A stretch of 63,993 nucleotides of DNA, counting the filler, from Basidiobolus ranarum (lineage: Eukaryota): the NCBI GenBank assembly GCA_040143965.1. It is 5 parts of 5 records of this genome, joined end to end, with 100 filler letters (N's around TTAATTAATTAA, not from the genome) between each part and the next. Parts side by side here need not be neighbours in the genome. Positions count along the whole stretch, not along the records: positions 25,755 to 38,516 come from JASJQH010007398.1; 4 more parts are not named here. The stretch is one strand, 5' to 3'. The position numbers were made by a program, and so were the translations under genes. The stretch's first letter is position 1. Every line of letters starts with the position of its first letter. Positions 6,728 through 42,686 of the stretch are shown here, in pieces. The notes under the pieces were generated by a model, which was not told the origin of the DNA, ran no database searches, and saw only the letters and a program-made list of their open reading frames with translations.

Positions 6728-6793
6728 GATTCTTTGGTAGTAAGATTCTAACACATTATAGATTCTTTGGTAGTAAGATTCTAACACATTATA
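6728..6793. repeat. Perfect 33-bp tandem duplication
   Basis: GATTCTTTGGTAGTAAGATTCTAACACATTATA at 6728-6760 and again at 6761-6793. Confidence 0.95.
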
Positions 6794-9399: not shown

Positions 9400-12150
9400 G
9401 TAAGCTCACAAAAATATTTCAGTACCCTGTAGATAGTGCTGTATGCTGTTTATCATTGATTAAATAAAGGGGACTTTGGTATTGCTTCACATTTGAAACT
9501 CTAAAGTATGAGGTGTGTTCAAACAACTCTACTCAAAGATGTAGAAAGAAGCAGTGAAAGCATCAGTGATGCTGTTAAAGAAGCATAATACTGCACTTAT
9601 ACTGACCAAGTAGTGAGATATTCCAATAGCCCCCTAGCAGCAATGTGAGGAGTAATGTTTTATGGTTGAAAGTCAGGATACTACTGTTGGGCTGAATTTA
9701 TTTCCAACAAAGTCAATATCAAAGTGACACTCTATAAGATTACAACTCAACATAATCTCTCTAAGGTTTATATCAGTCAAATCAAATGTCAAACTTCTTT
9801 GGACTTCTATGTGCACCATTTGTTGTCACATTTCAGCCTTAAAGACTTGATAGTAGGAACTTAAACAGGAGTAAAGGCTTACTTAGTAGCTGCTGTGCAA
9901 GATCTTAAGCTAAGAAGGTATCTGATGTATGGAATCAGATGTCATAAATGTTGCGGATATATTTACAAAAAATGACTGTTTTCACTTTCTGTATTAATTT
10001 AAAATGCAGTTAACCCAGTCCACATGGCTCTGAACTGATATACCAAACTCCTGCTTGGTCTTGACCTGATATAATTACAAGTCTTGTGTAACTTACCTTG
10101 TAAGATATTTCTGGATCAAAAAGTTCACTTAAAAGGAGAAATTGATCTAGAAAGTAGCTATAATGTGGCATGGTGATTAGTGTTCTTAGATGCTATTTGT
10201 TGACATTCCCCCAACTCTTGATCAGACCCTCTAGTACCTAGAATTTAATTTTGAGGTACTGGCTGAATAGCTTTCTGCAGTGCAAGAGAACAAATGACAT
10301 TCTGTCTATGTCAACAAAAGTTGAACCTATCAATCAATCAAGCAAAGTTTCACAAACCCATGATTTATTCATAACTAATCCACACAGTTTATAGTGTAGT
10401 GTCCTGGCACAGTGGTACATGTTGAACCTGAATATATAAGGATTCTGAATACACAGAACTTGCAGTGTTATGATAAAGCCTACTAAGCAACGGTACTGAT
10501 ACCAAAAAAGCAAAGTTCAAGGATATATTATCTAGATAGTGGAGCTATGAAATAGAAATTGCAAAAAGCCTTCAAAAGTGGGGTTTGGGAGAGTCTATGC
10601 TGAGGCATATGAAATTGCATTGCTAGGGAAGTGACTGACAGACTAAGGATACATTCAATAAGGTGCTATTGTTTTGTTTAAGACAATTGAAGTATTATTT
10701 TGTTGGCTGAAAAGAATATGCTTCACATTGATAACTCACATTCTGGCCAAACCTTAATCTAAAGCATCATTGGAATTATCAACAAAGGGCTTAGCTCAAG
10801 AAAATACAAAGTAGTTATTTGAGTACAAAAGCTGAAATCAAGAAAATAGAAACTCATTTCATTGGAGTTTGGTTATTAATATATGATGGTTAAGCACTGA
10901 ATTTGAAGATATTGCAACACTGATACTTATATTGGCAGACCAGATGACTGATTGTTCTTATATTATTTACCAGTCTGACTGTTGCATCAAATTGTAATGA
11001 CAATTTATTAACTTGGCAGAGTGAGCAGTTGTAAACACAAGGCTTACAAAAACAATCTGGTCAGGTAATTTTTGGCCAAGTACACAGATATTTTAAAGTG
11101 GCTTTGTGATGACTGGGTTATGATCACTTTTACCTGATTCATTTTGACTTTATATTGGCAAATAGTGTTGCTACTAACTAATTCTATTTGCTATCTACAA
11201 GGCAAATAACTACTGTATCTGCAGATATACATTGAGGTAAAATACTCTTTACTGAAAGAAATAGATTTAGCATATTAAAGGTAACACTTCCACTGCTGCC
11301 TTTAGCAAGCTCTAACAGGCAACTAATTTATCTCTCAGCTAACCACAGCCTACATTCATCCTTTATGCCAATAACACTTATTATGTTAGTGTGGCAAAGA
11401 CCTACTATACTCAACAATACTTTACTACATCCCTTGATGAGTAGCATTGCTTGAATACAATGCTGTAAAAGAGTGTATTAAAGTATTAATCACAGAAAAG
11501 CCTTTGAATTTTTTTATGTGACTATGCTTGCTGCATGGAAAGCAGTGTGTTAAAAGCAGCAATATATTCCAAACGCTATATATAACTAGTGACCTTGACA
11601 TTACTGGTGAATATTTGACAGCTAAAGCTGATTAGCATAGCAAATTGTACACATGGCTAGGAAAAGGAATGTCAGACCTTCTTCTGATTACCACTTTTGC
11701 AGGGAATTTTCCAAAAAACTTACAGGTCCTTCTCCAAACTATTGCTCTATAATCAACCTTATAGAGGAGGTTGGTACTAGCTTACTAGTTCTTGCCAATG
11801 TTGATGGAAAGTACTCAAACTAAGTTTGAAGAAATAAATTGCCTAAGTTGCAAACTCCAACTAATAATACTTTGCAAGCTGTGATGGAAAGTAAGCAGCT
11901 GCATGTTGTTGGTGCCCCCTATTTATTGCCTCTATCAAAGTACAAACCATATTACTACTGGACTTTTGTATATTTGTATATGCTTTTCCTGCCTAAATCA
12001 ATATTTAAGCTCAAGCCAGGTTGAGCTGTAACATCATCTAAAAAAACACTGGTGATGGTAATGCACAGGTATAATGTTGTATAGACAGACATGGTTGGTC
12101 AAACATTTCACCAATGCTAGTTGCAGTCTGATTCAGCATGATAGCCTACA
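9400..12150 (+). mobile_element. Decayed DUF6589-like (putative transposase) relic
   Basis: Collinear motif remnants: LADQMT (10932-10949, cf. GDQLT), FLCDY..ME (cf. FLRD), VKSSNIFQ (11549-11572, restoring to VKSGDIFR if CpG>CpA changes are reversed, cf. AIKxGDIGR), and LANVDGK..FEEIN (from 11791, cf. LVNxxG..F...D). Many stops and frameshifts; ends approximate; family recognised from memory of motifs. Confidence 0.45.
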
Positions 12151-12779
12151 TGGTGTTAAGGATATAAATTCACAGATGATGTAAGAATACTTCATATTGT
12201 TGAGAACCCAAGAGATCATCAGTGAGGCCATTATTCACTTAAAGGATATACATGACTGCATTACCTAAATACCAGAATGTTTGCAATATTCACTGATAAC
12301 TAATAGCACTTTAACTCCATACTTTTCATTATGAACTCACTTACTCTTGAACTTTAAAACAATCAGTTAGACCTATAATTTGCACATGTTTACTTCTTTA
12401 AGCTTTTACTATGAATAATTTCATATCACTAATCACAAACTTATCTCCTGTCATAGTGCCAGATTTTACTCTATATATTTTATTAGATAAGGTAATCTAT
12501 TTATGCAGCTCATTATTGAAAAGCAAATGTTATCTTAAAACTGGTACTGAGGGTTTACATGTATAAGCTAAGTTTAGTCGCACAAAGTTTAGTGACAGAG
12601 ACTTACTTTATTTCACTCTAGATTGCTTGAGCTGAATATTTATCTCCATATTTGCAGAGACCCAAAGGGCTATCTCACTATAAAATGAATATATAGACAT
12701 ATTGCTAGTTAAAAGACCACTCAGAAATCTTACAATTGAACTTTACAAGGGTATTTTGGCAATAAAAACAAAGAGCTTC

Positions 12780-16768: not shown

Positions 16769-17168
16769 ATGGTGGTAAGTGACATGACATCTTACGTAGT
16801 TGCTGGGAAGACTCGACAGCGAGCTTCTCTTTTTCATTGCGTACAACTGTTTTAACAATTGGATGGGATGATGTTATTCAATGGATAACTTGGCTAAAAT
16901 ATTGATTGAATTCTTATAGTTGGCTGTCGATCTCCTTAATCCCACTCTCGAACACGAGAAGAATACTCACAAGCTCAAGCGCTTGGTGCAATCTCCTAAC
17001 TCCTACTTCATGGACGTTAAGTGCCCCGGTTGTTTCAACATTACTACCGTTTTCTCCCATGCTCAAACTGTTGTCCTTTGTGGCTCCTGCGCTACTGTTC
17101 TTTGCCAACCTACTGGTGGTCGTGCTCGTTTGACCGAAGGTTGTTCTTTCCGTAAGAAGGCCAACTAA
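16769..17168 (+). CDS. RPS27: 40S ribosomal protein S27 (eS27), 2 exons
   Basis: ATG GTG|GTAAGT intron 16775-16919 ...TAG|TTG gives [10 protein letters not shown]...[10 protein letters not shown]...[37 protein letters not shown] at ~16690. Confidence 0.98.
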
Positions 17169-23936: not shown

Positions 23937-24329
23937 ATGAACGCTCCAACTACAACCATGTCAGCTGGAAATGCAAATGATCATAATTCCGGACCGAGTG
24001 ATCTGCTCTTTACCGTCTTGGGAACGGTGGCCGTCTTCTTGGTATTCGCGGCTGTATTTGGGATCAGATTCTGGAAGAACCGAAAGCAGGCACAAGAATT
24101 AAAGCGTAGAGTTGATCTAACCTTAGACAACCTCTCTCATGGATACCCCAAATTTCCGCAGTGTGCAAAATTACCCTCCTACACAGCACACAACTCACAA
24201 ACTACACTACCTTTAGCATTAGTTGAGTCTATCACTAAGCAAATGAGAGTTCATGATTCAATAATTCACATAGGTAGCGACACAAACTATAACGACACAC
24301 GGAGTGTAAATCCACCTCTCTATACATAA
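23937..24329 (+). CDS. Small single-pass membrane protein with PY-like motifs
   Basis: One TM segment (LLFTVLGTVAVFLVFAAVFGI) followed by basic RFWKNRK; LPSY and C-terminal PPLY. First ATG at 23937. Confidence 0.7.
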   Translation: MNAPTTTMSAGNANDHNSGPSDLLFTVLGTVAVFLVFAAVFGIRFWKNRKQAQELKRRVDLTLDNLSHGYPKFPQCAKLPSYTAHNSQTTLPLALVESITKQMRVHDSIIHIGSDTNYNDTRSVNPPLYT

Positions 24330-25754: not shown

Positions 25755-27385
25755 TCCCCAACCAAAATGGAAATTTGTGAGGGTTGTATGTATGAAAAAC
25801 AAGCCAGGCAACCATTCAAGAGCTCTGGTTTAATCAAATCTGTCATAAAATTGGATCTAATTCATTCAGATTTGTTTGGACCTATGCAAAATTTATCTTT
25901 AGGTGGAAAAAGATATTTAATCACATTTATTGATGATTATACAAGATACACTTGGGTCTACTTTACGGGAAGAAAAGAAGTAGCTCTGTCTATCTTTAGA
26001 GATTTTAAAACGCTTATGCAGACTGAAACTAGAACTAAAATCAAGAAAATACATACTGATAATGGTGGAGAATATACTTCAACACTATTTAAGCACTTTT
26101 GCAAAGTTCATGGAATTAAGCAAGAAACTACTGCCCCCTATTCACCTCAACAAAATGGAGTTGCTGAAAGAGCTAACAGGACTAAAAAAGAAATGGCAAG
26201 ATCTATGATAAATGCACAAAATTTATCTCATAACTTTTGGGTGGAATCTGTTGCTTCAGCTATGTATCTGAAGAATAGGAGTTTTACTAGTAGTCTGTCT
26301 AACTCTACACCATATCAAGCTTGGTTTGGAGTTAAACCTGATGTAAAACATTTGAGGATCTTTGGATGCATTGCTTATGTCAAAATTATGACCAAAAATT
26401 GGTCTAAATTTGATCCAAAAAGTTTGAAATGCATATTTCCTGGTTATTTTACTCAAACTAAGGCCTACGGACTCTATGATACCAAGATTTCCAAGTTGAG
26501 CAAGTCCAGGGATGTTTTGTTTAATCAAAATTAAAAATATTCACCCAAAATGACCTCAGACAATGACAAAAATCAAGTTTCTGCTGATCCCATCATTCAA
26601 ATTGATTCAAACTAAGACAATGAGGAAAATAGCATTCCTGTGGACCCTTCAACCAAAATGTTGCCTACTGAAGTGCCCAATACAATGCCAGAAGTTGTAG
26701 TACCTTTATCCCAAACCAGGAGATCAAATTGGATCAGAAATAGCCCTGATTACTATATCAATGAGTCCCAAAATTGGGCCTATGCCTGCACAGCTCAAAT
26801 ACATGAACCCCAGACTGTAAAAGAGGCCCTGAATGGCCCTCACATGAAATTTTGGAGATCTGCAATGGCTGATGAGTACCAGGCTTTGATTGATAATCAA
26901 ACTTGGATTTTAACCAACTTACCTGATGATAGAAAATCAATTGGCTGCCAATGGGTGTTTAAAGTTAAATACAACTCTGATGGCAATATAGAAAGGTACA
27001 AGGCTAGACTAGTAGCCAAAGGCAATTCCTACACACCAGGAATAGATTACACAGAAACTTTTGCTCCTGTAGCAAAGTTAAATTCAATTAGATTGATTTC
27101 AGCAATTTCAGCTGAATATCAGTTTATTACACATCAAATGGGTGTTAAAACAGCTTTTTTGAATGGTGAGCCTGCTAAGAAGATCTATATGGACCAGCCA
27201 GATGGATTTGTGGACCCAGAAAACCCTAAACAAGTTTGCAGACCCCAGAAAACACTCTATGGCTTAAAACAATCTCCTAGAGTGTGGAATAGCAAGATGG
27301 ATGCTTTTTTAGAAACACTCAAATTCCAAAAGAGTAATGCTGACTATAGTATCAACTTCAGGCCAGATAAGACAAACCCCACGTT
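25755..27385 (+). mobile_element. Ty1/copia LTR retrotransposon pol fragment (integrase plus 5' RT), inactivated
   Basis: CEGC..KQ, LIHSDLFGP, FIDDYTR, TDNGGEY, PQQNGVAERANR, then RT motifs WVFKVK, YKARLVAKG, ETFAPVA, HQMGVKTAFLNG, LYGLKQSPRVW, in copia order. In-frame TAA stops at 26532 and ~26613; sequence ends before YVDD. Confidence 0.96.
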
Positions 27386-30300
27386 TCTCCACGGATGTCA
27401 ATTCCAAGAGAGATTTCTGTTGGTTTAGTAACTCAAAAGTGATCGGCCCAAGTTTCTCAAGACGTGCATTGATTTCTTTTACACGCAAGAGTGTTTCTTT
27501 GGGAATAATCTTATAGATGTCTGAATTCAAAACCACCTGCTGAATATTTACAATCCCTTCAGTCAACTCTCTGAGCTCTCCTAATCTCTTAGCTAACTCA
27601 GTATCTCTCGCCTGGTCGTTTTGGTTAGCCGCCTTGGTTTCATGAAGTAATACATTCTGAATTTCTACGATGCGAATAATATCGTTTTTGAATTGGGTCA
27701 GCTTTGATTTAATTAACCGAATATCTCCCGTTTGTTCCTTAAGAATGCTCATTACTTCGTCCCGTTGTAACAATTTGCTTTGCTCGACAGCCATTTGCTT
27801 TATCCACCCGGCCATTTGGGCGAATTGTTGACGTAGCTGAGCAAATCGTCCTTCCATTTTCTGATAGTTACCACCCTCTCCAAGTAGCTTGACGATTGTT
27901 GTCTGTTCCTCACGGACACTTCTGATCACCATTCCAACCTGAGCCATACGATCATTTAGGTTTGAAATTATTTTGGACACTTCCTCTCCCACTCTAGCAG
28001 CTATTTCAGGTCCTAAAAGACTCCTCTGAGATTCAATTAATTTTCTCATAACTTCGCGCAGAGAACCAAGCTCAACAGCAATTGCCCGATCACGCTTAGA
28101 GTCTTCAGAAGATGCTTGTCCAATCTGCTTAATGATCAGTCCTTGCTCGTTAATCATCTTGTCAAATTGATTGCCCAATTCACTTAGTTTCACCCCAAGG
28201 CCAGCAATGCGATGATTCTGATCTCTTAGAAAAGCAGTTATTTCGCGGGTATTCAGAACTTTTGTCTGTTCAGCAAAGGTCTGTTTGATAAAATCGAAAA
28301 GTCCCAGTAAACGTTTGTTTACCTCACTAACTTGCCCCTCTAGTTGATGCCCTGTAGCGTTGCTATCGCGAGATAATTCAACGAGTGTATTTTGCTTGGA
28401 GGTAAGTTGATTTACGATTTCGACTAGCTGAGAATATTTCTCATTCAGCAAAGCCAACCGGCGAAGAATCGGCTCAGGAACTCTACCAGTTGATGAAATG
28501 GATAGCAATTTCTTTTGCTGTTCAATTAGTTGGCTAATTAAACTTTGAAGTCCACTTAAACGTTGAAGAATATTGGTTGTTTCTTTAGAGTCAGTCGTAC
28601 GATCAGCACTGATTCTCTTGAGTAAATCGAATTGAATTCGTACTAGATTCTGAATCTTTTGGTCAAGATTTCTCACTTCCCTGGTCAACAAATCAGTTTT
28701 GATCAAGTTTTGCTCGAGTAGCTTTGAGTTGTTCAGTAGGACAGTCTTTTGTTCTAAAAAGAGCTCTTTTACGTAAGCACCAAGCTGTTCTAATCTTGCG
28801 TCCAAACTTCCGACTCTATCAACAATTAAACTAGTATCTTTGCTGGATTGGACAAATAGCTCTTTCTGTAATCCGAGTACTTGATCTACATCCTTATTTA
28901 AGCCAAGGAGTTTACCATTGAGTTGGGCGATCTCTGCTGGGATTTTCTGCCTCAAAGCTTCATCGAATTTTTGAGATAGAACACTCGTTTGTTGGCTGGT
29001 CAATTGATAAATCGTTTTGCGTAACTCGGCCAGATTTTGGACGATTCTTGCAAATTTTTCATTGTCCATTTGCCCATCTTTGGATATTATAGCAACTAAC
29101 TTCTGTTGCTGTTCTACTAAGTATGCTACTTTGTTATCCAAATTCCCTAATTCAGATTTGATATATTTAAGATCCTGAGCTTGTTCAGGAGTTAGTCCTC
29201 CTCGTTTGATGATGCTTAGTTGGAATTGAGCGATTTTCTCAACCAGTTGGCTTAGGCCCGAGAGGTTCTTTTTCACTTGACCAATGTCTTCAATAATATA
29301 CTTCGTATCTCCATTTTGTTGTTGGATAAGATAGTTCTGTCGATCAGAGATTTGTACTACCACTTTGCTTAATCCCATAAACTGACTGCGTAAAGCATTG
29401 ATATCGTTAAGTAGCTCTTTGGGCACCTTATTCCATCCACCTTGGAGCAAAACGTTTTGTTGAACTAGTACTTTGCGAATACTTTCACTCACTAATGAAA
29501 GCACCTTTCTCAGTTGGTTCAATTCTTCATTTTGTCCACGTTCATTACCTAGTACAGCCTTTTGCTGATTGAGAAGTTGAACAATTTGATTGCTGATCTC
29601 GGCTAACTCCAAGGAGAGGCTCTTAATATTCCCATTTTGCTGCTTAAACAAATTGACTACTTCTTCGCGCGTAATCAAATGCTTTTGGGTTTCTGCTACC
29701 ATGGTTACTAGATTGTAGAGCTTGTTAAACTGTTCACCAAAGACACGAAGCTCTTCGCCATGCTCTTTGAGCATAGAATTGTCCTCTTGAGTATAAGCTA
29801 ACAGCTTATTTTGTTGTTCAAGGAGACCGCGAACAAATTTCATCAACTGATTCATGCCTCCATCAAGTTTGGAGAGCTCTTGAAGTACTTCTTTCGATTT
29901 AATAGTGTTACCCTCAGAAATAAAATAAACAAGCTTGCGTTGCTCATTAACCATAACCTCAATTGTTTTTCTTAGTTCTGACAGTTTGTCGTCGGTAATT
30001 CCAAAAATCTTCTCGATATCATTACCATATTTTCCCAGAAGTTGTTTTTGTTGATATGCCAGCTGATTGATATCTTTTCCGAGAGTGTTCAATCTCTGGT
30101 TGACGACTCTAAAGTTCTTGTTTTGCGATTGTGAGAGTTGAGTAATTTGCTTTAGCAGTATATTTTGCTTTTCGGCAACTCCATTGATCACCGAACTAAG
30201 TCGATTTATCTTTGCATTGATTTGTTGTGTGTTTTGAGCAATGAACTTAGTGGACCCCTCGACCTGAGAGAGTGAAGATTTGACTTCATTCAACACAATT

Positions 30301-33300
30301 CTTGTTGCTTCTGTCAACATATAAATCTTGCGACTCATCTCGCGAACTTCTCCAATACCTCTAATGGAGGAGCTAGATTGGAGATAGCGGAGGAGTTCCT
30401 TTTGTCCGTTGAACATTTTTTCAATATCTTCATAGACTTTAGAAAGTCTTCCGGCGGTTCCTTTGACGTACTCAAGGGTCTCTTGATCAACGGCCAGATC
30501 GTTCTTTTCCAGAGCAACGAGATCATGGAGAAGCTTCCTAAGAGTGCCCATCTGACCATTGATTTTTTTAATGTCAGCTCCTTCTTCCCGAATCACTGGA
30601 ACAAGATCCAGAAGTCGAATTGTATAGTCTTGCTGAGTATTCAGAATCCTAATAATTTCATCTAGCTTACCGAGCCTATTGACGAGACCTCTCAAATCCC
30701 CCTTGGCGTTTCCGCTCCCTGGTTTGAAGTTACCCAAAAGGCGAACTTGATCTTCAGCCAATTTTTGAACTAGGTATGTTAGTTGCTCTACTCTTTGGGC
30801 TAGACGTCCCTCATTCTGAAGAATTTTTTGTGAGGTTTCTTCTTTACCCACTACCTCTAGTACTCTCTCTTGTCCAGAGAATAACTGTTCAATTGCTTGT
30901 CTAACTAGGTTGAGTTGCTTACCAAGAGTATTCAGATCTCCTAGCGAAGAATTTTCAGCATTTTTAAGGGAGCTTTCCTGAAGTTCAATCATTCGCGATG
31001 TTGTTTCTTTCAAAGCGATCAGCTGGCCATTTAGTTTTCTAATATCCTTGGAGTAATCAGGTACCTTGAACCCTCCACTGAATAGACGTTTTTGCTGCTC
31101 TAAAACCAGAGTCATGATACTGCCTAACCTGGTGATTTTACCATTAATCTGGTCAATATTTTCAGACTGGCCATTCTCATTATTTAGGATCTGTTGTTGT
31201 TCTGCGGCAACCTTCTCGATGACTTGATAGATCTTAGTTGTCAATTCTTCTAGTACATCTATCTCCTTTTGAATTTTGTCCGAGAATTTTCCATTCCCAC
31301 CTTCCCGAATAGTAATATTCTCCTGGTTAACAAGTCCAATAACAGAATCACGGAGTTGACTGAGAATGCCGCGAAGATCGTTGTATTTTTCACTCTGGTC
31401 ATTGCTGAGGCGATCAAATATGCTCTCTTGCTGTTTGATAATCACACTCACTCTTTCACCAAGTTTTCCAAGTCGACTGTTCAATCCACTGAATTTACCA
31501 TTAAGTGAATTGAAATCAATATTTACCGCTTTGCCATCAATCAAAGATCTTTGTTGTTTAGCAATTAGCTCTACAATCTCAACCAGTCGATTTACTTGAG
31601 AACTGAGGAAACCAATCGCCTTATTGGAGCCATCACCGTCTGAGTCCTGATGATTCTTACCATATCGATTAACCAATTCAACTTGGACTTTTGTTAATCG
31701 ATCTATGATGCTACTAATATCGGCAAGTCGATAATTAATACTTCCGATATCTTTGGCCAATTCCTTAGGAGTGGAGGGGTTGCGGTATTGCTCAATTAAT
31801 GTTTTCTGGGAACTTACGAGATTCTGAACAACGGTTCGGAGATTTTCTACTGAAATTACGACCTGTCTTTCGTCTACATTAATAGAGTTATACCCTGGTT
31901 TGGATCCTTTGAAGTTGATGAGTTTTCTCTGTTCCTCGACCAAATATTCGATTCTTTTTCCAAAATCAACCAAATTGCCATCCAATTTAGTGATTAAGCC
32001 AGATTGCTGTTGAAGCCAGAGATTTTGTTGAGTGAGCGACTGGAAAATCTTATCAACTTTAACCAGTTTATCATTAAAAGCTGTCCATTTATCATCGCCA
32101 TAGGGTGATTTGGATTTTATCAACACTGCCTGTTCTTCGAATAATCTTTCGGTTACAGATTTAAGTGCCATTATTGCTCGAGTAACACCTTTGATATCAC
32201 GAAGGAATTCATTAGGGATTTTACCAGACTGGCTTTTGTTCAAAATATTCTGTTGGCCTTGCACCAATTCTTCACATTCCTTTTGAATACGAAGTAGCAA
32301 ATTGGTTATGATGGCATATTGCGACTTTGGGTTCTTGTTGTCTGTATCTGTGTATTGAACTAGATTTATCTGCTGAGAAGCAATCTTTTGGATCAGGTCC
32401 TTTAGCGAGTTCAGTTCTGAGGTAATCACCCCCACATTCTTTCCGCTGAATTCGTGACTTTCTTTCAAGTGATATTCACTAATCAAGGAGGTTTCTTTCT
32501 GAATAAGAGAGGAAATGGAGGAGTAACTTTCCTTTAGACGTCCTCCTAGTTCTTTAATCTCTCTGTAGATACGTTCGCTATGTTCTCCTTCTGCAGTATT
32601 GCCGCTACGAACCTCGTTAGTTACAGAGTTGAGTGCCTCAGCCAGACGAGCGATCTTTTGGGAAAGATTCCCGAAATTGGTTTTTTGACTTTGAAGAACC
32701 TCAGAAATGGATTCAATCTCTTTTTTCCCGAAGGTTCGATTTTGCTCTATGCTGCTTTCCAAGAGGCTTCGAACTTGGCTTAGCTCGTTTTGTAGTCGAG
32801 TGATACTGTTGTCATTTTTGGTAATTTTTGTAATCTTACCAATGACACTATTTAATTCGCTGGTGATCGATTCTAGAGCAGATTGCAATCCACGAATACT
32901 AGTACGAACCTCGCGAAGTTCAGATTCATGCTCTATGTTGTGGTTATTTCCCCGGTTATTGTAGCCTGATTCGATTTGGAATGAACCGTCCTTTCCAAGA
33001 CGCCCCACCGCACGCAACAAATCAGTAAGTCTAGAATTGATCTCAGTTATATCCTTAGATGATTTTACGATTGCAATGTTTTGTCGCTCGGTGGTGTGCT
33101 GCTGTTCCTCAGAGATCTGAGATATTCCATGTCTGAGTTGTTCGAGTTTTTCATTCAAGGAAGTAACTTCATTTAGTGTCTTAGCACTAATGGAGTATGT
33201 TTTGGACGTTTGTCTGTCAATAACCTGGTTTTGCTTGGATATTCCGCCAACAGCCTTGATGAGTTCTTCAACTTTGATTGCCAATACGTTCAGCTCTTTA

Positions 33301-34103
33301 CCCGTTCCCTTCTCAAAATGGTAGTTAGTGTTTGGAGTGATTTTGTGCCCTGAAGCTACTTCTTGGATTAAATAATCCAGCTTCTCTTCGATTTTCGTGA
33401 GCTCTACATTGGAATACTCTCCATGATTTCGAATTGGAACTCCATCATTTCCACTATATCCGGGGAGAATTTCAAATTGTTCAATAAGTTCCCCGTCTTC
33501 CAGACTAAGATCATAGCCGCTCTCACCGTAGCCTGATCCCAAATCAACCTGAACTAATTCACTCAAGCCAAATCCATCTTCAAACTCATCTTGTACCCCT
33601 CCGAGGAATCTTAGCTGATTATCGGGGAATAATACGATTTGCTCTTCTGGTACTTCCGTTAAGAATACCTGTTCTATCACACCAACTGGCTGTGCTTCGA
33701 TCAAGCGATAGGAACCATGTTGCTGAGCGGTTTTGGAGATATCACCATGGGATTGATTTTGGTTAGTGAATCTTTGGAGTGATTGCAACAGTCCAGTTTG
33801 ACCAACATGGGCGCTACCAGATAAATGATTGATTCCTGGGATGTCGAGCTTTCCTCTACTTTTAGTATCGCTATGGCCCTTCTTGGAGTTTGCGACTTCT
33901 TGTGAATAGGTGGTTTTCTTAGTCTCCTTTTTTTTCAACGATGCGGCAGGGTTCGCAATTTTGGTACTTACTGAACTAGTGGATCCTTCACCTTGAATTG
34001 TACTACTCAAAGCGAGTTGACTGAATAAAAATAGAGCCATGCGCCAGTTTTTGCTGACATTAGAAGGCTTGAAAGAATCGCGTGCATAGGCATTGGATAG
34101 CAT
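27309..34103 (-). CDS. Giant intronless coiled-coil repeat protein (2264 aa), probably secreted; true C-terminus replaced by copia sequence
   Basis: 6.8-kb ORF with a signal-like N-terminus (KNWRMALFLFSQLALSS), an acidic Gly-rich segment, then dozens of ~40-aa heptad units ending L..QQ..LL. Clear paralogue at 35939. Confidence 0.9.
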   Translation of the reverse strand: MLSNAYARDSFKPSNVSKNWRMALFLFSQLALSSTIQGEGSTSSVSTKIANPAASLKKKETKKTTYSQEVANSKKGHSDTKSRGKLDIPGINHLSGSAHVGQTGLLQSLQRFTNQNQSHGDISKTAQQHGSYRLIEAQPVGVIEQVFLTEVPEEQIVLFPDNQLRFLGGVQDEFEDGFGLSELVQVDLGSGYGESGYDLSLEDGELIEQFEILPGYSGNDGVPIRNHGEYSNVELTKIEEKLDYLIQEVASGHKITPNTNYHFEKGTGKELNVLAIKVEELIKAVGGISKQNQVIDRQTSKTYSISAKTLNEVTSLNEKLEQLRHGISQISEEQQHTTERQNIAIVKSSKDITEINSRLTDLLRAVGRLGKDGSFQIESGYNNRGNNHNIEHESELREVRTSIRGLQSALESITSELNSVIGKITKITKNDNSITRLQNELSQVRSLLESSIEQNRTFGKKEIESISEVLQSQKTNFGNLSQKIARLAEALNSVTNEVRSGNTAEGEHSERIYREIKELGGRLKESYSSISSLIQKETSLISEYHLKESHEFSGKNVGVITSELNSLKDLIQKIASQQINLVQYTDTDNKNPKSQYAIITNLLLRIQKECEELVQGQQNILNKSQSGKIPNEFLRDIKGVTRAIMALKSVTERLFEEQAVLIKSKSPYGDDKWTAFNDKLVKVDKIFQSLTQQNLWLQQQSGLITKLDGNLVDFGKRIEYLVEEQRKLINFKGSKPGYNSINVDERQVVISVENLRTVVQNLVSSQKTLIEQYRNPSTPKELAKDIGSINYRLADISSIIDRLTKVQVELVNRYGKNHQDSDGDGSNKAIGFLSSQVNRLVEIVELIAKQQRSLIDGKAVNIDFNSLNGKFSGLNSRLGKLGERVSVIIKQQESIFDRLSNDQSEKYNDLRGILSQLRDSVIGLVNQENITIREGGNGKFSDKIQKEIDVLEELTTKIYQVIEKVAAEQQQILNNENGQSENIDQINGKITRLGSIMTLVLEQQKRLFSGGFKVPDYSKDIRKLNGQLIALKETTSRMIELQESSLKNAENSSLGDLNTLGKQLNLVRQAIEQLFSGQERVLEVVGKEETSQKILQNEGRLAQRVEQLTYLVQKLAEDQVRLLGNFKPGSGNAKGDLRGLVNRLGKLDEIIRILNTQQDYTIRLLDLVPVIREEGADIKKINGQMGTLRKLLHDLVALEKNDLAVDQETLEYVKGTAGRLSKVYEDIEKMFNGQKELLRYLQSSSSIRGIGEVREMSRKIYMLTEATRIVLNEVKSSLSQVEGSTKFIAQNTQQINAKINRLSSVINGVAEKQNILLKQITQLSQSQNKNFRVVNQRLNTLGKDINQLAYQQKQLLGKYGNDIEKIFGITDDKLSELRKTIEVMVNEQRKLVYFISEGNTIKSKEVLQELSKLDGGMNQLMKFVRGLLEQQNKLLAYTQEDNSMLKEHGEELRVFGEQFNKLYNLVTMVAETQKHLITREEVVNLFKQQNGNIKSLSLELAEISNQIVQLLNQQKAVLGNERGQNEELNQLRKVLSLVSESIRKVLVQQNVLLQGGWNKVPKELLNDINALRSQFMGLSKVVVQISDRQNYLIQQQNGDTKYIIEDIGQVKKNLSGLSQLVEKIAQFQLSIIKRGGLTPEQAQDLKYIKSELGNLDNKVAYLVEQQQKLVAIISKDGQMDNEKFARIVQNLAELRKTIYQLTSQQTSVLSQKFDEALRQKIPAEIAQLNGKLLGLNKDVDQVLGLQKELFVQSSKDTSLIVDRVGSLDARLEQLGAYVKELFLEQKTVLLNNSKLLEQNLIKTDLLTREVRNLDQKIQNLVRIQFDLLKRISADRTTDSKETTNILQRLSGLQSLISQLIEQQKKLLSISSTGRVPEPILRRLALLNEKYSQLVEIVNQLTSKQNTLVELSRDSNATGHQLEGQVSEVNKRLLGLFDFIKQTFAEQTKVLNTREITAFLRDQNHRIAGLGVKLSELGNQFDKMINEQGLIIKQIGQASSEDSKRDRAIAVELGSLREVMRKLIESQRSLLGPEIAARVGEEVSKIISNLNDRMAQVGMVIRSVREEQTTIVKLLGEGGNYQKMEGRFAQLRQQFAQMAGWIKQMAVEQSKLLQRDEVMSILKEQTGDIRLIKSKLTQFKNDIIRIVEIQNVLLHETKAANQNDQARDTELAKRLGELRELTEGIVNIQQVVLNSDIYKIIPKETLLRVKEINARLEKLGPITFELLNQQKSLLELTSVEKRGVCLIWPEVDTIVSITLLEFECF

Positions 34104-34364
34104 TGGGATAACGTGAGTTCTAGCGATGTATGTATAGGGAAAGCAAAATTGGGTCCGAAATCAATGGACAAGTAGAGTGAGAAATAATGAAAAGCAAGTG
34201 AATTTCCTAAGTAAAAGAGTTGTTCAAAGATTCCTAAATAAATGGTTTGAAATTGAAACTTTTCTATTTCTAATTTGATTTAATAGAGATTATCAATGTC
34301 AGTCTAAAGTAGATACGTTTGTTGGTGGGAAAATTGAATGTACTGGAGTTGGATTCTTTTCTGC

Positions 34365-34373
34365 TATTTATAT
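34365..34373 (-). promoter_or_regulatory. Candidate TATA box of the giant coiled-coil gene
   Basis: TATATAAATAG on the minus strand, ~260 bp upstream of the ATG at 34103. Confidence 0.45.
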
Positions 34374-35938
34374 ACCTTGAGTGAATGCTACCTCCCATCT
34401 CCTCTGTATCGGAATCAATCCCTACAAGGGTTTTGAAACATGAGTTTGTATTTCTCTCCTAATAGTACTAGAATGAAAACTACTTAAAATCAAGGTGTCC
34501 TGTGCTAACAAGTATCATCGCATATTGATGAATTATCTTCTATATGATGGATCAAGCATACCGTATATTTTCTATCGAAGAAACAGAGTCTCATGTATAG
34601 TCTAAGATCTCAAGTGCCATGTTATTTGAGGATATCTGAATACGCTCAAGAAATAGCGAGTTCAGGAATGCAGTACATTTGTTGAAGATTACATGGGATA
34701 CAGTGCCGAATCCATACTGACCAAGAGAAAACGAACTTTTCTCTTGAAATGGGGCATGTATTAGTGACTGCATGAAGCTGATATGTGCCTGATAGATTTT
34801 CCCTCATGCTAAGAAAAACATTAATTTCAGTAGCCCGGTTATCACCTCCTGTAAGTTCAAGTGCTTAGCCTGACGTTGAGTTTCAGGAATCATGAGTATT
34901 GTTTTGATGGTATGTTTAAACAGGTACATTCCAGAAACAAGGATCACTCGACCATCGAAATTTACCATTTCAAGCCTCAGGCAGTAGGCTTATCATTGTG
35001 GTTTGCCATCCAAGCTACTTGACATGTGCTGATCAATTTAAATTAACCACTTCCAAAATACCAGGCCTAGTACTCCGATGGCTCAACTTGGCCAATTTTT
35101 TGTTTCGTAATTTCTGCACTACTGTTAACATGTGTTTATATTTGCGCATTGTTATGCATGAGCCAACATCCATGGAGTATCCCAACCCATATACTTCCAC
35201 CATCTAGTGTTTCCAACTTCTTGGTGCCATTTCTAGTGTCCCTAAACTGCGCTCCTTGTTTCTTTGTGTCAATATCGCATCCTACGAGTGGCAATTGGAA
35301 TAGTAGTTACTAATCACAGCAATTTCTATGATTGCACGGGAAAGATTGTTCAAGATGTTTGAGATCAGGTTTATTGGAGTAAGAGCCAGCATTGTGGCAA
35401 TGCTAGGCGTAGTTGACTGACTCACAGCTTGTTTAGTAACATGGTTAAGTTCACGCCTATCAGTTACCTCTTCCTGATTTAAGGCCTCGGATCTCTACGC
35501 TCCTAGGGCATCGTAGGCTTAAAGATGGGTTGCCAAGCTAATTGCACTTGTGAATATATGAGCAAACCAATATTAGCAAATAGGAGAAAAACTGAGATTC
35601 TCTTATAACACTGCAAAGGAATGCCGATTCAACAGTTTCATTGATTATGGATTGTGTAACTTCGTTTCACTAACCGTTTTCATAGAGACTTTAAATAAAA
35701 GCCCTCCCAAACATAATCCAGATTGACATTTTCAATTTTGACATACATCCTATTCGTATAATTTTGTGCATCAAAAGGCTCTCTGTCCCCTCACAAAATT
35801 CTACAGTTTTGAATTCATCTCGTACTATACAGATCAATTCCAAGGAATCATTGACCATCGAAGTCAACTTGCACTATATCTTTCCTTTCGACCGTTGATT
35901 ATAGAATTTATTGCTTGTCTTAGGACAATAATCCAATC

Positions 35939-38516
35939 ATGTTGTTTGAAACCTCAGTAAGCACTAGTGATGCCTCCCAGAAATCCAAGAACTTTCGTCG
36001 TAGTCTGTTCTTAATTTCACAATTAGCTGTGGCTCATGCTGTGAAGAGTGACTCGAATGAAATTCGCGATGAAACAGAAGACGAGATTCTTCAAACCAAT
36101 GCTATCCAATATAAAGCCAGTCCTTCCCAGAAGTCCCCTGAAAGTGGGAAGAAGAATTCACCAGGTAAGGTTGCGAATGGATTGAATGCTCAGTTGTATA
36201 ATTTGAATCAAGGAGTCTTCTCTGGTGCATCTAAAACTACATATCTATCAGATGGGAATTCAACACACTCAGGGTATCTCAATCAAACAATTTTGAATTC
36301 ATTATACAATGATGGAGGTCTTATTCTAGAGTTGGGTTACGCTGGACCCGGGTTTCCTTCGTATCTGGAACTTGGTGACTATCCATTATCTGGATACTTT
36401 GGTGGCTCCTCTTGGGAAACTCCGGGTAGTCAGGCTGTGCTTTTCCCAGATGGCCAATTAAGATATATAGGTCCAGCTCTGGATGGTAGATACGCGGATT
36501 TTGGAGATTTACAAGAACTTGGCGTAAACACTGATCAGGTAGGTATCGATCTACCAGAGGTAGTAGAGATTGAAGAGATCGAGACTGGGGAAAATTCGGG
36601 CATAACTTCTAGTCAACTGAATGATATGTCTTCGCAATTGGAAAAATCTAAAGAGTTTCAAATATTAGACAGGAAGCTGGATCAGCTCACTTTAGCTTTG
36701 TCTAAAGTATTTCTTGGGTCTGCCGAGGGTGGGGATAAAGGTCACCATTCCAACAATAATGTTCATATTGATGGATTTGTGGAGGGCATGGGCGAATTGA
36801 ATGGGAAAATTACTGAGTTAGTCAAGGCAGTAGGGATGGTATCCGAACAAAACCAAGTAATCGAAGCCCAAACCTCTAAGGTACTAGGAACTTCTACAAG
36901 AACTCTGTTTGAAGTAGATGCTATCAATTCAAAATTGTCTGAGATTAAAAAAGATCTAGCTTCCATTTCTGCGCATGAATCCCACATTGAGCGCCAGCAA
37001 AGTAATAATATTGTTCGCTCCACCAGAGACATCAACGAGATCAACGAGAGGATTACCGACTTACTAAGAGCAGTTGGTGCGTTATCTAATGGCTCCTATG
37101 GGAATCATCCTAGTGCAAAGTTGCCCTATAGACCTAACTCTAGTGAGGAGTTAAGAGAGATCCGTGGATATATGAGCCGAATGCAAGATTCTATCGCTAC
37201 GATTTCCGGTGAAGTTACGTCTTTTTTGTCAGTAATAGAAAAAACATCGCTGCAGAACATCGAAGGAATCAATCAATTACGTAAAGAGTTCAGCCAGTTC
37301 GAAGCCTTCGTTGGTGAAAAAATCGCCAAAACTGATCTCTCAGAAAAGCAAGATCATGCAGAAACGATGCAGCTTCTCAATCAGGAATACGCTCAAATAG
37401 GGAATCTGGGCAAACGAGTGAATAGTTTATTCGCAAGTTTGAACTTTGCCCTTGGGCAGCTTCGGAAGGTCGAAGACAAGGATGAAGATTATTCCAAAGC
37501 GATCAAAACAATCGGGGTACTACTTCAAAGACTAGGCCAAACAAGTAGCACTTTAGATAAACTAGTCAAAAAGGAAATGAGCTTAATCAACAATAATCGC
37601 TGGTCGAATAATCCTAATGAAGGTTCAGTTGACTCAAAACTAGTTCTCGAAAGCTTAAGAGAACTCGGCAATGAAGTTGGAAATTTGACTACGCAACAGC
37701 TGGAGTTATTCAAGAAATACTCCTCCGAATCTCAAAACGAAGGCTATGAAGCAGTTGTAAACCGTATAAATCAACTACAAAAAATAGTAACTCAGCTGGT
37801 TTCTGAGGAGAGCAATTATTTCAAGACCCCTAATTCTGAGAACTATTCAAGAGAGCTCGTTCGCGACGTCGAAAATCTTAGTCAAAACATTATCCATTTG
37901 AACTCGATCGTGAAAGGACTTGTTATCCAACAGCGTAAATTAATAGATTACTCAGGCTCAGATCACCAAGGGGAAGGCTCTTCCGAAACCCATTGGAATG
38001 AATTGAATGCCAACTTTGAGAAACTTTGGAGGGTAATAAACATGCTTACCACACAGAAAAATTGGATCAAGCAGCAAACATACGCAATCTCTAAGATTGA
38101 CTCTCATGTCACCGAGATAGGCTCCAAGATAAATCTGCTTATTAACGAACAAACAAGGTTGCAAGGAATCGATTCAACTCGAGATAAAGGTTCCAGAGGT
38201 AATTTAGATGTTACCTCGAAGTTGGAACAATTACGAAGGACCGTGGAACAACTAACTCGAGACCAACGTATCTTGCTTGGGAAATATAAAGATGGGAAAA
38301 ACCCAGAAGCCTTAGTGAGAGATATCCAGAGTGTGAATTACAAGTTGGCTGATCTCGGCTCGGTAGTCACTCGGTTGCTACAGGAGCAAAGGATATTGAT
38401 CGCCAAGGTCGATTCTGGACAGAAGCAATCTGGCGGTGAGAAATATAATTCGAAAGAGATTCAACTACTCAATGGACAAATAGAGCGTCTTGGGGAAGTA
38501 GTCAGTCTTATTGTAT
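35939..38516 (+). CDS. Paralogous giant coiled-coil repeat protein, 3'-truncated by the contig end
   Basis: Shares SKN[WF]R..LFL.SQLA, Q.VLFPD.QLR[FY][LI]G, EL.KAVG..S.QNQVI, DI.EIN.R.TDLLRAVG.L and DI.S.NY.LAD with the 2264-aa ORF. Open until the N-run. Confidence 0.9.
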
Positions 38517-38616: not shown

Positions 38617-38690
38617 CTTTCTGTTAGTATCCACTCCTGCTATCTCCTCACTCCCATAAGCTCCTATTTGTTAACCGTCAATAAATCACC

Positions 38691-39738
38691 ATGTCCGATC
38701 ACCTTGACGATGATTTGGTCCCTACCACCACCGTTGGCTACAAGCCTGGAGAGAAAAAAACTATCGAACAGCTAACTGCTCTTGATGCGGAGGACGAATC
38801 CCTTCGCAAATGGAAGGAAAACCTAGGTTTAGGCAAAGCAGCCGGTAGTTGTTGTTTCTTAAACTTGCCTTTATTTTATCACTCCGAACGCCAGGAATTC
38901 TAACTATTTTTCGTTCTCAAATATAGTTAGTGCTGAAGAGGATCCAAGAAAGGTTAAAGCGGTTTATTGGAATCGTCAAATATGCCATATCTATTTAACT
39001 ATTCAACTTTGTTCTTAGGTAGTTGTATTACAACTAGCTCTGGAGGTTCAAGGTAGACCCGACGTTGTGCTAGATTTATCTACTCCTGGTAATTTTATTT
39101 CGTTCACTCTTATCTTCACTGTTTATACCAAGTACAACTCAAATATAATGATACAGAGGCCATCGCCAAAGCCAAAGATGACGTTATTACCATAAAAGAA
39201 GGCATTGAATACAAATTGAAAGTGAAATTCCGGTATGTACGCTTGACTTTCTACGAGCATGGATAGCTCACTAATCCAACTTAGAGTTCAACACGAAGTT
39301 ATCTCGGGTCTTAAGTTCCTTCAGGTTGTAAAAAGAAAGGGTATCCCTGGTAAGATGACAAATTCCTTTATATCTTCGTTGTGATCCAACGAAACTAAGA
39401 GAATCTTGTTAGTTGACAAAACCGAAGAAATGATTGGAAGCTACGGACCCTCAGCTGAGGTTTATGAAAAGAAGGTTAGTTAGTGTTAATGTTAGGATTG
39501 ATTGCAACCCTAGCCTAACTAGTTGTCGTTTTATTCCTAGTTCTTGGCCGAGCAAGCACCATGTGGTCTTCTTAGTAGAGGCAATTACCATGCAAAGGTA
39601 CGTTTTCTTTTACGATTGCATCGGAATTCCTTGTTAAAATAGAACTCTTGTTTGCAGAGCAAATTCGTTGATGACGACAAATTTACTCACATGGAATGGT
39701 CATGGTCGTTTGATATCAAGAAAGACTGGAACAACTAA
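38691..39738 (+). CDS. RDI1: Rho GDP-dissociation inhibitor, ~8 exons
   Basis: GYKPGEKKT..LDAEDESLRKWKENLG, TIKEGIEY, VISGLKFLQVVKRKGI, EEMIGSYGP, SKFVDDD...WSFDIKKDW, joined across seven GT-AG introns. Confidence 0.95.
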
Positions 39739-41068
39739 ATAAGAATCATCTAATTCAAATACAATAGCTATTGAACTGACCAGAAAAGGGATGTGACATT
39801 CCTTATATTGAGGAGACTAGTACCTGTCCATCCAAACTATACCCAAATCTATTATTTCTAGCCTGAACATATTTCTGATGATTGTCCACTATTTACCAAA
39901 TAAACTCCCACTTGAGTTTGGAGATTTAATAAACGATCTAGCGTCTCTAAGATACTCTGGTGCATCTATTATTACGCATCATTGCTAGTAAAGTCATTAT
40001 AGGATCGTTGAAGCTCCCCGCGGAACCATGCCATCACGTCTTCACTCCCCCTCTTGCGCACCTTCTAGATGAAACTATCGTCCACCCAGGAATGGGTTTA
40101 GATTTGGGACTAAATCCAGAAATTCCAGTATGAGCAAGTTTGTGTTGTTGTTGGCTCACAGCAGTTAGAAAGTGTATACTTATTGGAGAATGGCTATGGG
40201 GTGGGAAGGTAGAGGGGAATTCTTTGTAACGATTTCCAATAGTGATCGCCTGTTTGACGCCATTCCTCGACTTACTGATTGTGCTACTTTGACAATCCCT
40301 AACCCTACGCACTAGCCGATGGGCTAGCAGTCCCAGTGGCCAATAACTGATGGTAAGACCTAGAATCTCGAGCCCACATCAAGTTTTGCCTTACATATTG
40401 GTTGTAGGAGGACAGTGAACATGATTGGCTTTCTCGAGATAGTAATTATACTCTAAATACGATGGACTAATGAATAAATGCCCATTTCTCTGCGAAACTT
40501 CCCAAATGTTTGGTAAGAAGTGTTCTTTTCTGTATGCATGATTAGCTCCTGTGGCTCTTATTGGGTACAGTCCTGACCTCAATACTGTTTTGTCACCATA
40601 GAGGCCAACTGATGACTATACCGCATTTGATTCGCATATTTGTCACAAAGCTTGGTAGTTTATGCTGGTTGACTAATTTAGTAGTGGTAACAGAGCAGAA
40701 ATACTCTGGTTTTGGGGGAAGGGTTAAGGTTAAGGGTGGAGGTGGCTTCGATTCAATAGATTTTATATGGCAATTAAGGAAACCATATCACGATTAATTC
40801 TAAATATGAATGCCGAAATCTATCTATATTATGTTGATGGTAAAATCATCTAAGAAGGTTAGAAGCTACCTTTGTAGACGACTGACTGAAAATACTCACA
40901 TACTTGTTGAATTTCTCTTTCTGTTGTCCCTTGCTCAAGTTTAATAATAAGTATCTATCTCCTCTTTGTATACTCCATCTTTAGGAAGGTTGCTGAAAAT
41001 TCAAGGTTTGTACTCATATTATAGTATGTAAAGAACTCTGTTATCTAATCCCTGTTTAGTTCTTTAAT

Positions 41069-42686
41069 ATGGAGCAAAGTGTTCCATCTACACCTACCGG
41101 TTTCGCCGAGATAGTCCAAGAGTTACATGAAAGAGTGGTTCAATTTCAACCCAAAGACCTGTACCAATTCTGTGCCGAATACTTTCAGGAAAAGATTCGA
41201 CAACAACGGGAAGACTTATTAAACCTTGGTAAGCTCAAAAAGAAGAGAAAATAATCTCTTGAACCCTCCAAAGTTCAAAAATTTTATATTTTTCATCAGA
41301 TTGCCCGTTTTATAACTTACCTTTATGTACCTACTATTTGGTAACGTTCATTTCTTGACTTACACATATCATATAATATAGCTCAGGCCAAGGCGGGAAG
41401 TTACTACTTAAGAACTATCCAGAGACAAGAGATAAATCCTTCCAGTACAAAACAAGTATACTCAAACGGAGTATCAATCGATATTAGTGCTCACGGACAA
41501 AATGGATTCACTTACGAGGATAGTGAAGATGAAGATGACGTATATCTCTCTAGTCACGAGGAAATATTAGAGGAAGCTACAGAGACTCATGATAATATTC
41601 CGGATGCTCCCCCACAGGAATTAGAGGAGGCGATGGCCGACGATGAACTGGAAGAAGTAGAAATAAAGGCGATGGAGTCTGACGAAGAGGACAATGACTC
41701 TGACATTATTATTTACGACGATCCACCCATGCCGGCGGCCTATAGCCGTGGCCGCCGTACTAGTGTCAGTGCCGAATCTATGACCCCTACAAGTGATGGA
41801 ACCTATGAGAAGGTTTACATTTCGAAAACAATAGAGCAACGTCAACGTATCGAAGTATCACTAGCCAACAACTTTTTGTACAAGAACCTGGATGAAGAAC
41901 AACGCCGTGATGTGATCGATGCCATGGCAGAAAAGAGGGTAAGTAATCATGATTCTATCATAAAGCAAGGAGAAGTGGGGGATTATTTCTATGTAGTGGA
42001 AACTGGTAGTTTCGACGTATTTGTTGCCAAGAATAATGAAGACCCAATAAAAGTGACTGAATATGGACCTAGTGGTAGTTTCGGTGAGTTGGCTTTGATG
42101 TACAATGCACCTCGTGCCGCAACTGTCACCGCTACCTCCGATGCGGTTTTGTGGGCATTGGATCGAGTTACTTTCCGTCGTATTCTAATGGAGCGTACCA
42201 ACACCAAGAGAAGAATGTATGAAGCTTTCCTTGAAGACGTACCATTATTAGTCTCGCTAGAACATTACGAGCGTCACAAGATAGCCGATGCCCTGGAATC
42301 CATGGTCTTCAGTGATGACGATGTTGTTATTCGTCAAGGTGACGTTGGAGATAGTTTCTATATTATCGAATCCGGTGAAGCCAGGGTCACGGTGATTGAC
42401 GAGGATGGAGTTGAGCATGAGCTTCCTGGATTAAAGAAAGGATACTATTTTGGAGGTATATATCTTCCTTTCTATATTTGAGAAGCCTTGTACTAATTTC
42501 ACCACCGCACCTTTAGAGTTGGCACTATTGAATGATAGACCTCGTGCAGCCACTATCTCAGCTAGAGGGCGTTTGAAGGTTGCCACTCTGAGTAAAAAAG
42601 CATTTGTTAGACTCCTTGGACCAGTAGTTGACATCATCAGGCGGAATGCCGTAAACTACAAAGTGACATCTCGTCATTTTGAATAG
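41069..42686 (+). CDS. pkaR: cAMP-dependent protein kinase regulatory subunit, 3 exons
   Basis: D/D domain (QPKDLYQFCAEYF), RRTSVSAES inhibitor site, two cNMP-binding domains (FGELALMYNAPRAAT; FGELALLNDRPRAAT). Introns ~41229-41381 and 42456-42516. Confidence 0.96.

Follow-up and report, generated by a model that had tools for sequence, protein, structure and literature searches.

The stretch of DNA analyzed here (the window; 63,993 nucleotides, filler included, from the fungus Basidiobolus ranarum, GenBank assembly GCA_040143965.1) carries a head-to-head pair of giant genes, A and B, which on sequence grounds belong, in our view, to a genuine family that is undescribed, confined to the genus, and clearly organized in repeats. 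The two appear to be ancient paralogues of Basidiobolus, predicted rod proteins of ~410-425 kDa. The explanation that we tentatively prefer, at a little under an even chance, is that they would build a secreted, two-component, segmented coiled-coil fibre, 0.3-0.5 µm long, in which each protein oligomerizes with itself. The window joins five contigs artificially, and the pair sits on one of them, G000:C7398 (window positions 25755-38516). Gene A is an open reading frame (ORF) of 2264 amino acids (aa) running from 34103 to 27309 on the minus strand, and gene B runs from 35939 to 38516 on the plus strand, giving 859 codons up to the gap. With ORFs 1835 bp apart and products that are 28% identical across 875 columns (E 5e-74), the divergent paralogue pair proposed in an earlier note on this DNA stands, and the shared upstream region between them (34104..35938) is a putative bidirectional promoter. 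The window copies are broken, A being truncated and B split over contigs; the pair to study is the intact one on contig C6876, where A' (3749 aa) and B' (3594 aa) lie 1295 bp apart. The head-to-head pairing thus recurs at a second locus of the genome, and the upstream regions of the two loci (1835 bp versus 1295 bp) show no blastn similarity at E<=1.

All members of the family share one order of parts. A leader comes first, the LFPD.QLR motif and an acidic neck follow, and behind the rod the chain closes with a tail that bears an aromatic motif. In gene A the leader (33990..34103, minus strand; aa 1-38) consists of a basic n-region, an 11-residue hydrophobic stretch at aa 22-32 and small residues at -3/-1, and the gene B leader (35939..36049, plus strand; aa 1-37) is likewise signal-peptide-like. 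A signal-like leader occurs in six of the seven N-termini examined, with a hydropathy of 1.8-2.2 across 11 aa in six members. The motif is present in all seven, as LFPDNQLR in A (33609..33632, minus strand; aa 158-165) and as LFPDGQLR in B (36440..36463, plus strand; aa 168-175), so the shared leader and VLFPDxQLR motif noticed earlier are both real features of the pair, the motif reading V/ALFPD.QLR in the two ORFs. Also correctly described was the acidic, Gly-rich neck (33399..33608, minus strand, aa 166-235 in gene A), which over 70 aa has a net charge of -15 and 18.6% Gly in A and a net charge of -12 and 10% Gly in B. The tail is of low complexity, ends in polar or charged residues, and carries an aromatic motif of the G[YF]xYxxG[FY]WYP type; its net charge is -14, -11, and -9 in A-type chains and +14 and +13 in B-type chains.

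Most of each chain is rod. An iterated unit profile, which misses a few degenerate units, detected 48 Gln-anchored heptad units in window A (27382..33386, minus strand; modal spacing 41 aa) and the first 13 units of window B (36656..38515, plus strand), compared to zero or one in each of five shuffles of A; the four full-length chains hold 79, 78, 79, and 75. Hydrophobic periodicities of 3.46-3.5 and 39-40 residues in the window ORFs agree with this, confirming the long run of ~40-aa amphipathic units that had been read from the window. Leaving aside the Gln layer, hydrophobic residues make up 81-99% at the core a/d positions, and the e/g flanks are hydrophobic in part. The earlier note had placed both Asn and Gln at core positions: this is true of Gln, which occupies the last a position in 84% of 311 units, while Asn is enriched at the flanking e position and not in the core. 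Units are spaced by 41 residues in 100 of 307 intervals and by 39 in 53, and about three-quarters of unit junctions contain Gly or Pro. Similarity between units peaks at lags of 4, 8, and 12 in all four full-length chains, revealing a ~160-aa super-repeat that fades over the last ~13 units, where the unit itself is unchanged. Cys is almost absent, as had been noted (one in A's homologous part, none in window B, none conserved). The estimated length of the rod, 310-330 nm from core helices only or 460-480 nm if entirely helical, supports the suggestion of a rod a few hundred nanometers long.

Several features suggest that these chains probably enter the secretory pathway, and that secretion of A and B is plausible. 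The leader is kept between paralogues that are otherwise ~30% identical. In addition, the units contain 59 N-x-S/T sequons where 86+-8 are expected from position-preserving shuffles (1 of 1000 shuffles was as low), the reverse motif is unaffected (93 versus 85 expected), and six control frames of cytosolic or nuclear SMC and myosin proteins show little or no sequon deficit. The dipeptide KR is also rarer than RK in the rods (78 versus 106, with 102 expected); together with the sequon depletion, this suggests that the chains meet the secretory pathway. Despite the depletion, a single N-x-S sequon where the rod ends (A' aa 3537, B' aa 3401, and equivalents) is kept in four of four full-length chains. 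No transmembrane-grade segment was found in five full-length chains, where the highest 19-residue hydropathy is 0.95-1.34, and no hydrophobic glycosylphosphatidylinositol (GPI)-type signal was found at the C-termini.

Alternatively, the rods may be intracellular, forming an organelle-anchored tether or a lineage-specific filament that is anchored through the N-terminal hydrophobic stretch or else taken up by mitochondria. In fungi, coiled coils of giant size are usually found inside the cell, and these lack conserved Cys. The hydrophobic stretch is short (11 aa, Ser and Gln among them), and the basic n-region before it, at 14-21 aa a long one with hardly any acidic residues in A-types, resembles mitochondrial presequences; gene model P0005 lacks the stretch altogether. 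Further points count against a secreted fibre: the sequon-deficit statistic rests on related sequences, D-x-T is depleted as well (0.60), the deficit in the B' rod is mild (27 versus 33.6), and the myosin tail alone has 3 sequons versus 6.0 expected. We nevertheless consider an intracellular rod unlikely, given the sequon and KR deficits and a charged-residue content of 27% in the rod compared to 41% in myosin and 37% in SMC proteins. Moreover, no Pfam family reached its cut-off in the two window ORFs or in five full-length members, and the intracellular coiled-coil domains (motor, ABC ATPase, hinge, GRIP, and Myosin_tail_1) were not among the matches, although the myosin and SMC genes of the same genome do score. 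The earlier note had recognized no family and had named golgins, myosin tails, and SMC-like proteins as characterized intracellular families that might match; we found no confident match to any of them.

We asked how the chains might pack by measuring where opposite charges fall relative to one another. In the intact B. ranarum pair, opposite charges pair within the unit at g-b(+2), c-e(+2), and g-e(+5) (z -5.4, -4.4, and -4.0), the same three pairings appear in the B. meristosporus rods (z -5.9, -5.5, and -3.6), and b-g(+5) is null (z +1.0). This pattern, along with that of the e/g positions, is statistically unlike the two-chain controls from the same genome: the myosin II tail pairs at g-e(+5) (r -0.29) and not at g-b(+2) (r -0.02, versus -0.21 in the rods), and SMC arms show neither signal. 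Parallel coils with more than two chains characteristically combine hydrophobic e/g positions with flanking g-b and c-e bridges. One parallel design, CC-Hex, has Glu at g and Lys at b, according to the available text of its description (10.1101/503698). Charge pairing also tracks a chain's own sequence (beta -0.15, t -7.3) rather than that of its paralogue (beta -0.03, t -1.4), which favors homo-oligomers. From these sequence statistics we therefore favor parallel oligomers in which A joins A and B joins B, with more than two chains each, over a heteromeric A/B coil in register.

An obligate in-register A/B coil (A2B or AB2), expressed from a bidirectional promoter, is accordingly the least probable of the readings that we weighed, and the earlier suggestion of a heteromer is disfavored in this form. 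It does draw on the close match between the paralogues: at 32.6% identity, A' and B' stay colinear to within +-10 residues across aa 200-2000, and 72 of their 79/78 units are in register. Each species also keeps at least one full-length A and one full-length B. Collagen IV genes, which also lie in head-to-head pairs, offer an analogy. However, there is no charge complementarity across paralogues beyond what inheritance gives, and an extra block of ~160 aa, about four units, in A would have to loop out of such a coil.

That same four-unit block, the one large indel between A and B, fits a different arrangement, in which each chain folds on itself into antiparallel four-helix bundles, one per ~160-aa super-repeat, as an extensible spring or scaffold of ~120 nm reminiscent of talin or spectrin. 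The periodicity at lags of 4, 8, and 12 and the Gly or Pro at most junctions suit this arrangement too. Two super-repeats (27390..28346, minus strand) served for structure prediction, and AlphaFold2 single-chain models (16-row alignment) of A and B had helices interrupted at each unit boundary (A, pLDDT 62 and pTM 0.48; B, 57.8 and 0.43). Several observations weigh against parallel oligomers here. The low-confidence A model resembles four-helix bundles over residues ~45-205, one super-repeat, and aligns with IncA (Z 12.9, rmsd 3.3 A, 154 aa, 8% identity), although a Z near 13 falls in the range seen for unrelated helical bundles. Among PDB sequences, the super-repeat profile matched designed antiparallel bundles of a single chain best (E 5.6e-6), adjacent units carry weak antiparallel charge signals at position sums of -16 and -20 (z -1.5 to -2.6), and the available text of 10.1101/503698 places g/b charges in antiparallel tetramer designs as well. 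The g-e(+5) signal also vanishes (r -0.04) under an automatic register over the whole rod. Intrahelical and i,i+1 charge pairs are anticorrelated too, so part of the charge signal is local charge neutrality, and since the rod sequences are related, the z values are inflated.

Even so, we find a bundled chain improbable. Model confidence is low, the four-unit periodicity fades in the last ~13 units, within-unit charge pairing outweighs any signal between units, and even-numbered up-down bundles would place both ends on one side, ill-suited to a linear chain. Since the seam of a chain modeled alone has no partner to cover it, the bundle is a rival rather than a result. The Foldseek check proposed for the repeat blocks gave no match in PDB or BFVD at E<=0.001, VIA-align returned generic helical bundles only, and Spectrin had no Pfam match in the ORFs and full-length members searched. 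A complex prediction of two A segments (209 aa) and one B segment (214 aa), with alignments unused and controls not folded, scored 0.02 against a mark of 0.34, which speaks neither for nor against binding.

Under the homo-oligomeric fibre that we prefer, the conserved leader would direct each chain into the endoplasmic reticulum, and the chains would be released because they have no transmembrane segment or hydrophobic GPI-type tail. At least three copies of the same protein would then zip up, parallel and in register, into a coiled coil. Its ~80 segments of 25-30 residues, each closed by a Gln core layer, would be linked through loops with Gly/Pro or through short breaks in the helix, and the rod would be semi-flexible and ~310-480 nm long. 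The LFPD.QLR and YxxG[FY]WYP motifs are probably beta-hairpin knobs that set the register or join ends. Presumably made from a shared promoter, A rods with acidic tails and B rods with basic tails may associate by their ends into an extracellular two-component fibre or gel. At odds with this last step, the window B tail is net neutral overall, with a basic patch.

What such a fibre might be for is suggested by the biology of the genus. Known fungal adhesins are mostly glycosylated and Ser/Thr-rich, or amyloid-like. The capilliconidium of Basidiobolus bears an apical droplet of extracellular adhesive with which it attaches to arthropods, as stated in the accessible portions of PMC5126542 and PMC13370150. 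This droplet is the most specific candidate for the material; coats of the spore or wall, the zygospore, or the gut stage are alternative sites and equally open. The sole tie between the genes and the droplet is that both are characteristic of this lineage. It is doubtful that A and B are the load-bearing fibre of the adhesive droplet or of another coat, a fungal "silk" of self-oligomerizing ~400-kDa, 0.3-0.5 µm rods locked together through oppositely charged tails and small aromatic end knobs; to our knowledge no such material is known in fungi, and none surfaced in our searches. If secreted, these rods would rank with the longest coiled coils described outside cells and would represent a new kind of structural material for fungi. 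The pair would also give a concrete starting point for probing what makes up the capilliconidial glue by which the fungus rides on arthropods, and each chain supplies ~80 natural variants of a Gln-layered 41-residue segment, which could be useful for protein design.

Gene A, which the earlier note followed as far as 27309, is not complete. Paralogue homology stops at 27382, so the homologous coding part covers 27382..34103 on the minus strand (2241 codons, from the ORF and paralogue identity), its DNA is 69.6% identical to the intact paralogue over 27382-33393, and the family's 3' ~1500 codons are missing. The last ~23 codons of the ORF are the antisense of a reverse-transcriptase fragment belonging to an internal piece of a Copia-type retrotransposon (integrase and RVT_2; 25755..27380, plus strand), which is joined within its reverse-transcriptase region to gene A codon 2241. 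We rejected a spliced 3' end for gene A because nearly all of the copies listed lose their Copia homology right at the breakpoint: the fragment has at least 39 other copies in the genome, 89-96% identical, nearly all matching up to ~27379. No long terminal repeat was seen at the junction, and searches of the assembly with protein and DNA found no second copy of A's 3' third. The truncation is explained by one deletion that fused A to a downstream element, or by misassembly. The Copia-type element is high-copy (40 matches listed, 1085 first-look candidates), and one copy, L033, has beside the element's 3' end what we take, by eye, to be a tRNA-like sequence (bases 1-70).

Gene B, whose first 859 codons fill 35939..38516 on the plus strand, is cut where its contig stops and resumes on G000:C8306 (reverse strand, 2012-aa frame; 17-bp exact overlap) and then on G000:C1516 (772-aa frame; 51-bp overlap with 2 mismatches), for a total of ~3,620 aa across three contigs; the public annotation splits it into three models. 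The frames are indeed open throughout, as had been emphasized, but their intronless state is not special, since the genome has other long single frames, of 2130 aa in myosin II and of 1221 and 1270 aa in two SMC genes. For the same reason we rejected intronlessness as a mark of foreign origin.

The two loci have a longer shared history. A kinase gene, which we take to be PKA, lies downstream of B at both (89.6% identity over 211 aa), and the loci are therefore duplicated blocks, with G000:C6876:21307-48331 corresponding to C7398/C8306/C1516, the kinase gene included. Other genes are paired as well, namely SMC1-like genes (C7126 and C229) and myosin II (C7652 and C1351), consistent with an old whole-genome duplication; the accessible parts of PMC9523718, PMC10386755, and PMC7466969 hold no usable statement on Gln layers or on a genome duplication in Basidiobolus. 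In a tree of seven rows (aa ~1200-2240), window A groups with the B. meristosporus protein P0008 (100/100) and window B with P0005 (96/95), placing the locus duplication before the species split. The accessions of P0005 (B-type) and P0008 (A-type) follow one another on a single contig of 204 kb, their relative orientation not seen, and no B partner of P0003 was found in that species. The window-locus A copy is damaged in both species, being truncated in B. ranarum and lacking ~960 aa in the P0008 model, which has the longest branch. Between loci, dN over the rods is 0.15-0.29 with dS saturated, which shows the predicted rods to be under purifying selection.

Beyond Basidiobolus we found no relatives in the databases searched. 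A profile search of 1.84 billion representative proteins gave seven matches at E<=0.001, four of them pieces from this genome itself and the other three proteins of B. meristosporus, and word searches likewise returned Basidiobolus proteins only. A search for shorter B-type proteins returned just the genome's own two fragments. Searches of Pfam, PHROGs, and PDB sequences gave nothing above family cut-off, weak matches to Bacillus_HBL, IL11, and the like were rejected as generic helical noise, and the best ESM Atlas scores were 0.83 and 0.86, a low recognition. Pattern scans raised 90 candidate stretches in metagenomes, 39 in prokaryote genomes, and 78 in viruses, none of which was confirmed, and thus no donor for horizontal transfer was found. 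In the literature on Basidiobolus, subscription journals and supplements lying outside our scope, we found no published description of these genes. The family accessions, all annotated as "hypothetical," are K7432_000010, K7432_000011, K7432_008920, K7432_013816, and K7432_014096, and K493DRAFT_351315, K493DRAFT_297118, and K493DRAFT_334011. Public gene models (P0002, P0004, P0003, P0005, and P0006) seemingly excise false introns from open frames: P0002 misses 19 aa of the DNA frame, P0004 falls 17 aa below frame length, and P0006 ends early.

Elsewhere in the window, runs of N around a 12-base stop-codon linker mark the contig joins (12780-12879, 25655-25754, 38517-38616, and 51368-51467). 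Since these joins are artificial, it does not follow that the spliced genes past 25655 and 38616 are neighbors of the pair, and we rejected a link to genes past the spacers, which lie on different contigs. These include, all on the plus strand, what are presumably an exon like that of ribosomal protein S27 (16920-17168), a multi-intron Rho-GDI-like gene (38690-39740), and a gene like the PKA regulatory subunit (41080-42481). A 130-aa ORF at 23937-24329 (plus strand), with one N-terminal hydrophobic segment and then a basic stretch, is a candidate small single-pass membrane protein. Positions 1-12779 contain no frame of at least 150 aa, have a strong AT skew (+0.28, then -0.14), and resemble decayed repeat DNA.

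Among known systems, T4 fibritin, a trimeric protein of ~490 aa, is one of the closest parallels in design. It too is a segmented coiled coil with loops and has a short aromatic, Gly-centered C-terminal motif, the foldon, a 27-residue beta-hairpin trimer, as far as the available text of PMC5496177 describes it. In contrast, the Basidiobolus chains are several times longer, and their motif lies 150-200 low-complexity residues past the coil. No homology to fibritin was detected, with no PDB sequence match below E 9 for the C-terminal 250 aa of B' and no PHROGs match below E 0.01 for four segments. Alpha/beta coiled coils, which are marked by 2- or 6-residue insertions into the heptads, share the polar core layers, and a hexad inserted into heptads yields beta-layers in trimers (Hartmann et al. 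2016, PMC4786415, in the parts available); the 41-residue spacing (100/307 intervals) equals five heptads plus a hexad, and the LITREEV junction of the rods resembles the beta-layer consensus given there, [aliphatic]-A-T-K-[polar]-[DE]. However, only about a quarter of mid-rod junctions are of the beta-layer type, and most of them depart from that consensus. The single-chain models show a two-residue helix break and no strand at 41-spacing junctions, and a single chain cannot form a beta-layer.

The stalks of trimeric autotransporters and phage fibres differ in that the rods are eukaryotic and carry a Gln core layer instead of Asn, which in autotransporter stalks occupies the d position; neither a YadA-type beta-barrel anchor nor head repeats had a Pfam match in the window ORFs and full-length members. 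Unlike GPI-anchored or Ser/Thr-rich fungal adhesins, the rods have a heptad-patterned stalk and polar or charged C-termini. Secreted animal coiled coils (hymenopteran silk and mantis ootheca proteins) and baculovirus P10/PEP proteins are similar in being Cys-poor, low-charge, fibre-building coils, although they are roughly ten times shorter. Faint leads in this direction, which do not demonstrate homology, were a Baculo_PEP_C match below the cut-off (E 0.007) and an ESM Atlas cluster with 15% NPV_P10 members (score 0.86). By analogy, then, the pair would work most like the segmented multi-chain coiled-coil fibres represented by T4 fibritin and adhesin stalks, while being a member of neither family.

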